Shown piece by piece: positions 40,457 through 52,507 of a DNA stretch of 64,000 bases (positions are counted from its first letter, which is position 1; each line of letters starts with the position of its first letter). This DNA comes from Escherichia coli (GTDB lineage Bacteria; Pseudomonadota; Gammaproteobacteria; Enterobacterales; Enterobacteriaceae): assembly GCF_003334355.1 (NCBI RefSeq), contig NZ_QOWP01000014.1; one strand, 5' to 3'. Under the pieces are notes generated by a model. That model did no database searches and was not told where the DNA came from. It was given only the letters and a program-made list of their open reading frames with translations. A program made the translations under genes and the position numbers.

Positions 40457-41440
40457 GTGTTAAAAAAATGTCTGCCCCTGCTGTTGCTGTGCACAGCGCC
40501 CGTTTTCGCTAAACCCGTTCTGACTGTTTATACCTACGATTCCTTCGCCGCCGACTGGGGGCCTGGTCCGGTGGTTAAAAAAGCCTTTGAAGCCGACTGT
40601 AATTGCGAACTGAAACTGGTGGCGCTGGAAGATGGCGTTTCGCTTCTCAACCGTCTACGGATGGAAGGCAAAAACAGCAAAGCCGATGTAGTTCTGGGGC
40701 TGGATAACAACCTGTTAGACGCCGCCAGTAAAACCGGACTGTTTGCCAAAAGCGGCGTGGCAGCGGATGCCATTAACGTTCCCGGCGGCTGGAATAATGA
40801 CACTTTCGTACCGTTTGATTACGGCTACTTCGCCTTCGTCTACGACAAGAACAAACTGAAAAACCCGCCCCAAAGCCTGAAAGAGCTGGTTGAGAGCGAT
40901 CAAAACTGGCGAGTGATTTATCAGGATCCGCGCACCAGTACGCCGGGGCTGGGTCTGCTGTTGTGGATGCAAAAAGTCTATGGCGATGACACCCCGCAGG
41001 CCTGGCAGAAACTGGCGAAGAAAACTGTCACCGTCACCAAAGGCTGGAGCGAAGCCTACGGCCTGTTTTTAAAAGGTGAAAGCGATCTGGTACTGAGTTA
41101 CACCACCTCTCCGGCTTATCACATTCTCGAAGAGAAAAAAGATAACTACGCCGCCGCGAACTTTAGCGAAGGTCACTATCTGCAGGTGGAAGTCGCCGCC
41201 CGCACCGCTGCCAGCAAGCAGCCGGAGCTGGCGCAAAAATTTCTCCAGTTTATGGTTTCTCCGGCTTTCCAGAATGCGATCCCAACCGGCAACTGGATGT
41301 ATCCGGTGGCAAATGTCACGCTGCCTGCCGGGTTTGAACAATTGACCAAACCAGCAACCACGCTGGAGTTCACGCCAGCCGAAGTGGCGGCACAACGTCA
41401 GGCATGGATTAGCGAATGGCAACGCGCCGTCAGCCGTTAA
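40457..41440 (+). CDS. thiB: Thiamine ABC transporter periplasmic binding protein
   Basis: 327 aa from GTG (MLKKCLPLLLLCTAPVFA signal peptide); track ORF starts 4 codons earlier at TTG; exact start uncertain. Confidence 0.92.
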   Translation: MLKKCLPLLLLCTAPVFAKPVLTVYTYDSFAADWGPGPVVKKAFEADCNCELKLVALEDGVSLLNRLRMEGKNSKADVVLGLDNNLLDAASKTGLFAKSGVAADAINVPGGWNNDTFVPFDYGYFAFVYDKNKLKNPPQSLKELVESDQNWRVIYQDPRTSTPGLGLLLWMQKVYGDDTPQAWQKLAKKTVTVTKGWSEAYGLFLKGESDLVLSYTTSPAYHILEEKKDNYAAANFSEGHYLQVEVAARTAASKQPELAQKFLQFMVSPAFQNAIPTGNWMYPVANVTLPAGFEQLTKPATTLEFTPAEVAAQRQAWISEWQRAVSR

Positions 41441-49105: not shown

Positions 49106-49375
49106 GCCGCATCAGGTATGTAACGCCTGATGCGATGCTGGCGCGTCTTATCAGGCCTACACGTTGCGATTTTGTAGGCCGGATAAGCAAACCGCATCCG
49201 GCATTCAACGCCTGATGCGACGCTGGCGCGTCTTATCAGGCCTACGCGTTCCGATTTTGTAGGCCGGATAAGCAAAGCGCATCCGGCATTCAACGCCTGA
49301 TGCGACGCTGGCGCGTCTTATCAGGCCTACACGCTGCGATTTTGTAGGCCGGATAAGCAAAGCGCATCCGGCACG
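49106..49375. repeat. Tandem BIME array: three copies of an about 85-bp REP-containing unit between araA and araD
   Basis: Unit cgcctgatgcgacgctggcgcgtcttatcaggcctac..cgattttgtaggccggataagcaaagcgcatccggcattcaa repeats with 85-bp period (motif gcgcgtctta at 49141, 49226, 49311). Confidence 0.92.
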
Positions 49376-49386
49376 AAGGAGTCAAC

Positions 49387-50082
49387 ATGTTAGAAGATCT
49401 CAAACGCCAGGTATTAGAAGCCAACCTGGCGCTGCCAAAACACAACCTGGTCACGCTCACATGGGGCAACGTCAGCGCCGTTGATCGCGAGCGCGGCGTC
49501 TTTGTGATCAAACCTTCCGGCGTCGATTACAGCGTCATGACCGCTGACGATATGGTCGTGGTTAGCATCGAAACCGGTGAAGTGGTTGAAGGTACGAAAA
49601 AGCCCTCCTCCGACACGCCAACTCACCGGCTGCTCTATCAGGCATTCCCCTCCATTGGCGGCATTGTGCATACGCACTCGCGCCACGCCACCATCTGGGC
49701 GCAGGCGGGTCAGTCGATTCCAGCAACCGGCACCACCCACGCCGACTATTTCTACGGCACCATTCCCTGCACCCGCAAAATGACCGACGCAGAAATCAAC
49801 GGCGAATATGAGTGGGAAACCGGTAACGTCATCGTAGAAACCTTTGAAAAACAGGGTATCGATGCAGCGCAAATGCCCGGCGTTCTGGTCCATTCCCACG
49901 GCCCGTTTGCATGGGGCAAAAATGCCGAAGATGCGGTGCATAACGCCATCGTGCTGGAAGAGGTCGCTTATATGGGGATATTCTGCCGTCAGTTAGCGCC
50001 GCAGTTACCGGATATGCAGCAAACGCTGCTGGATAAACACTATCTGCGTAAGCATGGCGCGAAGGCATATTACGGGCAGTAA
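49387..50082 (+). CDS. araD: L-ribulose-5-phosphate 4-epimerase
   Basis: 231-aa ORF; class II aldolase/adducin fold; RBS aggag just upstream. Confidence 0.97.
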
Positions 50083-50085
50083 TGA

Positions 50086-50101
50086 CTGTATAAAACCACA
50101 G
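50086..50101 (+). promoter_or_regulatory. LexA (SOS) box upstream of polB
   Basis: ctgtataaaaccacag fits CTGT-N8-ACAG LexA consensus; 55 nt upstream of polB GTG start. Confidence 0.85.
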
Positions 50102-50112
50102 CCAATCAAACG

Positions 50113-50143
50113 AAACCAGGCTATACTCAAGCCTGGTTTTTGA
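50113..50143 (+). terminator. araBAD intrinsic terminator hairpin (overlaps putative polB -10)
   Basis: aaaccaggc-tatactcaa-gcctggttt followed by tt; 30 nt after araD stop. Confidence 0.7.
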
Positions 50144-50155
50144 TGGATTTTCAGC

Positions 50156-52507
50156 GTGGCGCAGGCAGGTTTTATCTTAACCCGACACTGGCGGGACACC
50201 CCGCAAGGGACAGAAGTCTCCTTCTGGCTGGCGACGGACAACGGGCCGTTGCAGGTTACGCTTGCACCGCAAGAGTCCGTGGCGTTTATTCCCGCCGATC
50301 AGGTTCCCCGCGCTCAGCATATTTTGCAGGGTGAACAAGGCTTTCGCCTGACACCGCTGGCGTTAAAGGATTTTCACCGCCAGCCGGTGTATGGCCTTTA
50401 CTGTCGCGCCCATCGCCAATTGATGAATTACGAAAAGCGCCTGCGTGAAGGTGGCGTTACCGTCTACGAGGCCGATGTGCGTCCGCCAGAACGCTATCTG
50501 ATGGAGCGGTTTATCACCTCACCGGTGTGGGTCGAGGGTGATATGCACAATGGCACTATCGTTAATGCCCGTCTGAAACCGCATCCCGACTATCGTCCGC
50601 CGCTCAAGTGGGTTTCTATAGATATTGAAACCACCCGCCACGGTGAGCTGTACTGCATCGGCCTGGAAGGCTGCGGGCAGCGCATCGTTTATATGCTGGG
50701 GCCGGAGAATGGCGACGCCTCCTCGCTTGATTTCGAACTGGAATACGTCGCCAGCCGCCCGCAGTTGCTGGAAAAACTCAACGCCTGGTTTGCCAACTAC
50801 GATCCTGATGTGATCATCGGTTGGAACGTGGTGCAGTTCGATCTGCGAATGCTGCAAAAACATGCCGAGCGTTACCGTCTTCCGCTGCGTCTTGGGCGCG
50901 ATAATAGCGAGCTGGAGTGGCGCGAGCACGGCTTTAAAAACGGCGTCTTTTTTGCCCAGGCTAAAGGTCGGCTAATTATCGACGGTATCGAGGCGCTGAA
51001 ATCCGCGTTCTGGAATTTCTCTTCATTCTCGCTGGAAACTGTCGCTCAGGAGCTATTAGGCGAAGGAAAATCTATCGATAACCCGTGGGATCGAATGGAC
51101 GAAATTGACCGCCGTTTCGCCGAAGATAAACCTGCGCTGGCAACTTATAACCTGAAAGATTGCGAGCTGGTGACGCAGATCTTCCACAAAACTGAAATCA
51201 TGCCATTTTTACTCGAACGGGCAACGGTGAACGGCCTGCCGGTGGACCGACACGGCGGTTCGGTGGCGGCATTTGGTCATCTCTATTTTCCGCGAATGCA
51301 TCGCGCTGGTTATGTCGCGCCTAATCTCGGCGAAGTGCCGCCGCACGCCAGCCCTGGCGGCTACGTGATGGATTCACGGCCAGGGCTTTATGATTCAGTG
51401 CTGGTGCTGGACTATAAAAGCCTGTACCCGTCGATCATCCGCACCTTTCTGATTGATCCCGTCGGGCTGGTGGAAGGCATGGCGCAGCCTGATCCAGAGC
51501 ACAGTACCGAAGGTTTTCTCGATGCCTGGTTCTCGCGAGAAAAACATTGCCTGCCGGAGATTGTGACTAACATCTGGCACGGGCGCGATGAAGCCAAACG
51601 CCAGGATAACAAACCGCTGTCGCAGGCGCTGAAAATCATCATGAATGCCTTTTATGGCGTGCTCGGCACCACCGCCTGCCGCTTCTTCGATCCGCGGCTG
51701 GCATCGTCGATCACCATGCGTGGTCATCAGATCATGCGGCAAACCAAAGCGTTGATTGAAGCACAGGGCTACGACGTTATCTACGGCGATACCGACTCAA
51801 CGTTTGTCTGGCTGAAAGGCGCACATTCGGAAGAAGAAGCGGCGAAAATCGGTCGTGCACTGGTGCAGCACGTTAACGCCTGGTGGGCGGAAACGCTGCA
51901 AAAACAACGGCTGACCAGCGCATTAGAACTGGAGTATGAAACCCATTTCTGCCGTTTTCTGATGCCAACCATTCGCGGAGCCGATACCGGCAGTAAAAAG
52001 CGTTATGCCGGACTGATTCAGGAGGGCGACAAGCAGCGGATGGTGTTTAAAGGGCTGGAAACCGTGCGCACCGACTGGACGCCGCTGGCCCAGCAGTTTC
52101 AGCAGGAGCTATACCTGCGCATCTTCCGCAACGAGCCATATCAGGAATATGTACGCGAAACCATCGACAAACTGATGGCGGGTGAACTGGATGCGCGACT
52201 GGTTTACCGTAAACGCCTTCGCCGTCCGCTGAGCCAGTATCAGCGTAATGTGCCGCCTCATGTACGCGCCGCTCGCCTTGCCGATGAAGAAAACCAAAAG
52301 CGTGGTCGCCCCTTGCAATATCAGAATCGCGGCACCATTAAGTACGTATGGACCACCAACGGCCCGGAGCCGCTGGACTACCAACGTTCACCACTGGATT
52401 ACGAACACTATCTGACCCGCCAGCTACAACCCGTGGCGGAGGGAATACTCCCTTTTATTGAGGATAATTTTGCTACACTTATGACCGGGCAACTTGGGCT
52501 ATTTTGA
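50156..52507 (+). CDS. polB: DNA polymerase II (B-family)
   Basis: 783-aa ORF from GTG; exonuclease motif DIETT and polymerase motif YGDTDS. Confidence 0.97.

Follow-up and report, generated by a model that had tools for sequence, protein, structure and literature searches.

The 73-bp spacer between araD and polB very probably holds three ordinary and already characterised elements, namely a LexA operator, the polB promoter and the araBAD terminator, which are packed into it and each do their usual job. The window, i.e. the whole 64,000-nucleotide stretch of DNA that was analysed, is Escherichia coli chromosome from a non-K-12 strain and shows 99.3% identity to MG1655 across 56 kb. A query consisting of araD and the polB 5' end found matches in 5401 of 5426 complete E. 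coli genomes, and the araD and polB annotated there bear out the gene assignment that the initial annotation had made from the sequence:

49387 to 50082, plus strand: araD (L-ribulose-5-phosphate 4-epimerase), last gene of araBAD, from the list of open reading frames and the RefSeq annotation of matching genomes
50156 to 52507, plus strand: polB (DNA polymerase II) with a GTG start, from the list of open reading frames and annotation

The stop codon of araD (TAA) occupies 50080-50082, and GTG is found at the polB start of related loci in the alignment as well. From 50040 to 50200 the sequence is that of MG1655 but for one T, as the T-run at 50137-50141 comprises five residues (T5) in the window and six (T6) in MG1655 and every matching complete genome; the 70-nt stretch has matches in 4711 complete E. 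coli genomes, and T5 is absent from all of them. This difference, the sole indel against MG1655 in 56 kb (next to 397 substitutions), reflects a mutation private to this strain or else a sequencing error in the homopolymer, and it leaves the terminator U-run and the polB 5' UTR each one base shorter. The substitutions are concentrated in the araA-araD intergenic region (49107-49373), where 3.1 tandem copies of an 85-nt REP/BIME-like unit were found with 93% matches. Since the window sequence is that of the K-12 locus, start-site maps and SOS literature for K-12 apply directly.

The first of the three elements directly follows araD:

50086 to 50101, no strand assigned: LexA (SOS) operator CTGTATAAAACCACAG, from sequence, conservation and the listing of polB as a LexA target

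The box had been placed 4 nt past the araD stop, which is correct insofar as it starts at the fourth base, while the gap itself amounts to three bases (tga). Relative to the mapped polB start it spans -48 to -33 and overlaps the -35 position. CTGTATAAAACCACAG conforms to the CTG-N10-CAG (CTGT-N8-ACAG) palindrome with an AT-rich core, and the earlier identification of this 16-mer as the polB LexA box was confirmed by a published list of LexA targets, in which polB appears with a heterology index of about 13 and an induction on replication inhibition of 4.7- and 3.1-fold (3-5 fold) (PMC11228462). Bare motif patterns could by themselves be due to chance: the window contains two copies of CTGT-N8-ACAG where 0.73 are expected, and 17 of 100 shuffles had at least as many. 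The features of the spacer stand above chance because of the mapped transcription start and the conservation in 79 related loci. The other CTGT-N8-ACAG match (40481-40496) lies within thiB according to coordinate conversion. The looser CTG-N10-CAG pattern occurs 32 times against 14.4 expected, a number that none of 100 shuffles reached, and CTGTATAAAACCACAG is the sole match among these that is both intergenic and AT-rich. Nearly all of the 32 are GC-rich and located in coding sequence, and the surplus looks like a general palindrome excess rather than LexA sites.

Downstream of the operator, and partly within it, lie the elements of the polB promoter:

50099 to 50104, plus strand: CAGCCA at the expected -35 position (17-nt spacer), three of six matches to TTGACA, overlapping the right half of the LexA box
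50122 to 50127, plus strand: polB -10 hexamer TATACT (-12 to -7), with the mapped start 7 nt downstream and 97.5% column identity
50134, plus strand: polB transcription start (T), equivalent to MG1655 65803 on the minus strand, from two published maps and coordinate conversion

Comparison with published start-site maps shows that polB initiates at 50134. Kim et al. 2012 (PMC3415461, Table S1) put the polB start at minus-strand position 65803 of MG1655, with a 5' UTR of 23 nt and the upstream sequence GACTGTATAAAACCACAGCCAATCAAACGAAACCAGGCTATACTCAAGCCT; this call rests on 2 reads. The SMRT-Cappable-seq data of Yan et al. 2018 (Supplementary Data 2, PMC6131387) place the start of b0060 at 65803 too, in agreement with the known operon. 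Conversion through the MG1655 alignment locates this base at 50134 of the window, the T of GCC-T-GG in the 3' arm of the hairpin described below, with a 5' UTR of 22 nt. In Klebsiella pneumoniae, the published polB start follows a perfect TATAAT and is shifted downstream by one base relative to the orthologous position. The proposal that TATACT is the polB -10 is thus substantiated by a K-12 start 7 nt downstream in two independent datasets and by a Klebsiella start within 1 nt. A polB start elsewhere, which the initial annotation had named as the finding to look for against this proposal, was looked up in the published maps and did not emerge from them. In the dataset of Kim et al. 2012 (PMC3415461), a 21-read start of hepA/rapA at MG1655 63588, or about 52348 in the window, falls within the 3' end of polB, so the promoter of that next gene, too, lies inside its upstream neighbour.

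TATACT agrees with TATAAT at five of six positions and is separated from the GTG by 28 nt, as had been stated; other E. coli have 29 nt at this place owing to T6 instead of T5. The hexamer is preceded by a C at -13, which is also a base of the hairpin stem. At the -35 position only CAG, which is part of the LexA box, is conserved in the alignment, and CAGCCA is a poor -35. A scan of 49700-50500 for consensus sigma-70 promoters called 0 sites; the polB promoter falls below the threshold of a simple promoter scan. Many real promoters, and sigma-S-dependent ones in particular, have a weak -35 element, and a C at -13 together with TATACT and a degenerate -35 is the form preferred by sigma-S. The C(-13)TATACT and the poor -35 would fit the RpoS dependence of polB reported in the literature, according to which RpoS is required for full polB expression. 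The sigma-S-like CTATACT was observed in E. coli and E. whittamii, and a perfect TATAAT in E. albertii and most other genera; replacement of the -13 C by T was found mainly in lineages without the hairpin. As another candidate -10, we considered TATAAA within the LexA box (50089-50094), which was rejected, as the resulting start would precede the terminator and disagrees with the mapped one.

The third element is a hairpin followed by a T-run, both of which share their bases with the polB promoter and the first transcribed nucleotides:

50112 to 50122, plus strand: 5' arm of the hairpin, GAAACCAGGCT, also the -22 to -12 spacer of the polB promoter, from folding; 92% column identity
50130 to 50140, plus strand: 3' arm of the hairpin, AGCCTGGTTTT, from folding; 98% identity where araD is adjacent and 67-69% where a gene intervenes
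50137 to 50141, plus strand: T-run of the terminator, also +4 to +8 of the polB mRNA, from sequence; T5 here, T6 in other E. coli

The core arms AAACCAGGC (50113-50121) and GCCTGGTTT (50131-50139) enclose a 9-nt loop, TATACTCAA, and the minimum-energy fold adds the pairs G50112-U50140 and U50122-A50130, resulting in 11 pairs (6 of them G-C) and a 7-nt loop. The 46-nt hairpin segment folds with -17.7 kcal/mol (z = -5.6), a value that none of 200 shuffles equalled. T5 is partly paired with the upstream A-tract and is followed by GATGGATTTT; from the T-run to the GTG the sequence reads GATGGATTTTCAGC. The hairpin begins 30 nt past the araD stop and does not follow the LexA box immediately, as had been described, but is set apart from it by 10-11 nt, CCAATCAAAC(G). 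The location of TATACT in the loop was correctly recognised: the hexamer lies at the 5' edge, with its first T as the closing base of the stem and the remainder in the loop. Likewise, operator, promoter and terminator do occupy a common stretch of about 60 bp (50086-50141, about 56-60 bp), so that the earlier reconstruction from the raw sequence is right as regards both the architecture and the -10.

The hairpin combines a GC-rich stem-loop, a U-run and a position downstream of a co-directional transcription unit, as is typical for intrinsic terminators. A terminator/promoter scan called it on the minus strand only, which is due to the loop and tail rules of that scan. The 3'-end tables of Adams 2021 list no araD or intergenic 3' end, an absence that is expected from cells grown without arabinose, and no Rfam family matched 49700-50500 at E <= 1. 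An analysis of covariation in the hairpin found 3 double changes, no better than shuffles, and is uninformative because the arms are conserved by sequence and not by compensation; compensated arm changes were seen in a few sequences, for example AGACC/GGTCT in locus L080 and CCAGC/GCTGG in L082. Both arms also contain a Dcm site (CCAGG at 50116-50120 and CCTGG at 50132-50136), with the start T50134 in the centre of the second.

A scan with one genome per species yielded 80 Enterobacteriaceae polB loci, 79 of which contain the module, while one is cut by a contig end; the 79 loci and the window were combined into an alignment of 80 rows. CTGTA and CAG of the box do not vary in any row, nor do TATA.T and the G located two bases ahead of the hexamer. 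The -10 hexamer has the highest column identity (0.975), followed by the 5' arm (0.92), the 3' arm (0.90) and the box (0.89), and the bases separating box and arm reach only 0.44. The hexamer reads TATAAT in 68 of the 79 loci; the other 11, among them E. coli and E. whittamii, have TATACT. The distance from box to hexamer is 20 nt in 76/79 loci, 21 nt in two and 10 nt in Siccibacter. A fixed operator spacing is something that a promoter needs and a terminator does not. The Siccibacter turicensis locus (L082, 2427-2500), in which the box has moved one helical turn closer to the -10 and both arms are altered (the CCAGC/GCTGG change), carries a 372-aa gene without NCBIfam match between araD and polB. 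In five further loci (L032-L034, L037 and L077), short GC-rich palindromic repeats such as CCCCTCTCCCCTGGGGAGAGGGCCGGGGTGAGGGG are present between the araD stop and the LexA box; box, hairpin and -10 are intact despite these insertions.

To relate the hairpin to the transcription that reaches it, loci were grouped by upstream context. The araD-adjacent group was defined by a spacer of <= 352 nt without intervening ORF, and a strong hairpin by a dG of <= -12 kcal/mol. Hairpins were scored by dG and by arm pairing in the canonical register, as counting the pairs that enclose the -10 misclassified Salmonella loci. The identity columns refer to the 80-row alignment, in which the araD-adjacent group has 59 rows through the addition of the window and three loci at contig ends:

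araD directly upstream, 55 loci: strong hairpin in 52; 3'-arm identity 0.98; -10 identity 0.98
Same-strand gene inserted, 13 loci: strong hairpin in 6; 3'-arm identity 0.69; -10 identity 0.96
Opposite-strand neighbour (Salmonella, Citrobacter freundii group, C. sedlakii), 8 loci: strong hairpin in 0; 3'-arm identity 0.67; -10 identity 0.98

The 5'-arm identity in these three groups amounts to 0.92, 0.88 and 0.96, respectively, and a T-rich tail (at least 5 T in 8 nt) is present in 55/55 araD-adjacent loci. The Salmonella segment, with -4.4 kcal/mol and z = +1.4, folds no better than its shuffles. The difference in hairpin strength between araD-adjacent loci and those with an opposite-strand neighbour gave p = 7e-6 (Mann-Whitney), and the comparison of araD-adjacent loci with the other two groups p = 1e-8 (Fisher), both values being uncorrected for phylogeny and overstating the evidence, because the losses fall in about six lineages and are not 15 independent events. 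Exceptions were noted in the Pluralibacter gergoviae locus (L075), which is devoid of canonical arms although araD is adjacent, and in L081, in which the hairpin is weakened.

On the reading we favour, operator and -10 would form a constant core that polB always needs, and the 3' arm with the U-run would be a terminator for incoming transcription that decays when nothing strong enters. The retention pattern across loci appears to indicate that 3' arm and T-run are selected only where co-directional upstream transcription arrives, above all the very strong araBAD transcription. That the 5' arm is kept where the 3' arm is lost can be attributed only to an unspecified constraint on the promoter spacer. 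As to the genes that separate araD from polB, an opposite-strand ORF of ~130-160 aa without NCBIfam match was found in Salmonella and Citrobacter (L010, L015, L007, L008, L011, L013, L021, L024). Genes are inserted between araD and polB in L019, L022, L028, L040, L044, L047, L067 and others as well. In several other genera, a same-strand protein of ~210 aa shows distant ElyC/DUF218 similarity with E = 2.5e-8, well below the curated cut-off.

Taken together, the locus probably works as follows. Transcripts of araBAD initiated at PBAD would cross the araD stop and the LexA box and form the 11-bp hairpin at 50112-50140, whereupon the U-run would release RNA polymerase a few bases past the hairpin by intrinsic termination; the structure and the evolutionary retention pattern point to araBAD termination just after the U-run. 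A separate RNA polymerase holoenzyme uses TATACT with its poor -35 and starts at 50134, as the published start-site maps show. A LexA dimer bound to 50086-50101 would block the upstream half of this promoter until SOS induction, as we infer from the position of the box and the literature, and because the box is weak, repression of polB would be modest. As the start lies inside the 3' arm, the 5' arm is missing from the polB mRNA, which is thus unable to fold into the hairpin and escapes termination; its first 67 nt contain no stable structure (z = +1.5, worse than shuffles). The terminator is therefore one-way, stopping incoming transcripts and sparing those born within it.

The close overlap raises the question of whether it is itself regulatory, which we consider unlikely. 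In the presence of arabinose, a train of polymerases from PBAD running over 50086-50145 would then occlude the polB promoter, displace LexA or read through; occlusion would lower polB expression, and LexA displacement or read-through would raise it. In the reverse direction, bound LexA would be a roadblock just ahead of the terminator. Every araBAD polymerase crosses the whole polB promoter and operator before its release, the LexA box with its heterology index of about 13 is weak, and the araD-adjacent arrangement is widespread (55/79 loci), all of which speaks for such cross-talk. However, polB control does not require the overlap, since lineages that have araD at a distance of 0.7-1.5 kb and lack the hairpin conserve the promoter-operator module to the same degree, and compactness alone accounts for the overlap. 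Literature searches on araBAD/polB read-through, the terminator and the intergenic region returned nothing relevant and yielded no expression data tying arabinose to polB; the 3'-end and 5'-end datasets examined were made without arabinose. The suggestion that hairpin formation hampers the polB promoter had to be abandoned. What folds is the RNA of the araBAD transcript arriving from upstream, and as RNA on a different transcript the hairpin cannot itself impede a DNA promoter. The INTERFERENCE idea is plausible only as RNA polymerase traffic from PBAD, for which promoter occlusion or LexA displacement is possible. A coupling of carbon source to DNA-damage tolerance through the overlap, in which arabinose-driven transcription from PBAD would alter Pol II levels, down or up, appears rather improbable; if true, such arabinose-dependent interference would link sugar metabolism to Pol II levels. 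On this reading, the T-run, which doubles as +4 to +9 of the polB mRNA and differs in length in this strain (T5 versus T6), could in addition tune initiation.

We give very little credence to the view that the inverted repeat AAACCAGGC-N9-GCCTGGTTT primarily serves not as a terminator but as a DNA operator, at which a dimeric regulator would clamp the polB -10. The palindrome is indeed centred on the -10 and start region, and its arms are conserved by sequence and not by compensation, as such a site might be. Against this, Salmonella, Citrobacter sedlakii, Pseudocitrobacter and Phytobacter have retained polB, box and -10 despite a decayed 3' arm, the loss of the arm goes along with which gene lies upstream and how that gene is oriented, and the T-run that follows the repeat in all araD-adjacent loci is the signature of an intrinsic terminator. 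Equally remote is an incidental TATACT with polB transcribed from further upstream, either from a start in araD at 49991 or by araBAD read-through: the poor -35 of the proposed promoter and a second 2-read start at MG1655 65946, i.e. window 49991 inside araD (Kim et al. 2012, PMC3415461), would agree with it, but upstream transcripts must pass the hairpin and the U-run, the polB transcription unit in the SMRT-Cappable-seq data starts at 65803 (PMC6131387), the Klebsiella start is concordant, no other block of the spacer is as conserved as the hexamer, and the sequence upstream is unrelated in loci with inserted genes. The start at 49991 lies 166 nt upstream of the polB start codon and has a GATATT a few bases upstream, and any transcript from it would meet the terminator.

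For E. coli, the LexA box, the polB start and the araBAD terminator, the three elements of this spacer, are each already established. Terminator, LexA box and GTG start were reportedly covered by Lee et al. 1986 in work on araBAD organisation and by Iwasaki et al. 1990/1991 and Chen et al. 1990 in work on the polB sequence; a polB promoter is listed in RegulonDB/EcoCyc. The modest value added here is comparative and lies in the constancy, over 79 loci, of a -10 in the loop and an operator at a fixed 20 nt from it. The decay of the 3' arm once araD no longer abuts polB offers a natural illustration of how two functions that share bases can come under separable selection.

With respect to known systems, the closest counterpart is the K-12 polB (dinA) promoter and LexA operator with the araBAD terminator, which is the identical locus and from which nothing of substance differs but T5 versus T6. 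With the canonical SOS promoters (recA, uvrA, sulA, dinB, umuDC) the polB promoter has in common the CTG-N10-CAG operator with its AT-rich core, the overlap of the operator with the RNA polymerase binding region, and derepression after LexA cleavage. In contrast to these, in which the box lies over the -10 or the start, the polB box is positioned upstream over the -35 region (-48 to -33) and, at a heterology index of about 13, is among the weakest accepted LexA boxes. The promoter itself is nearly devoid of a -35, and its -10 in E. coli is CTATACT, which includes the C at -13. The classic case of promoter occlusion, lambda pL over the gal promoters, was reportedly described by Adhya and Gottesman in 1982. 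It resembles araD-polB in that polymerases arriving from upstream run over a downstream promoter; at polB, unlike there, occlusion is just a possibility. Finally, the hairpin shares with intrinsic (Rho-independent) terminators of the A-tract/U-tract kind a GC-rich stem and a U-run after the last gene of an operon. Unlike the usual examples, it has the -10 of the next gene as its loop and the start of that gene in its 3' arm, and for this reason it acts only on incoming transcripts.
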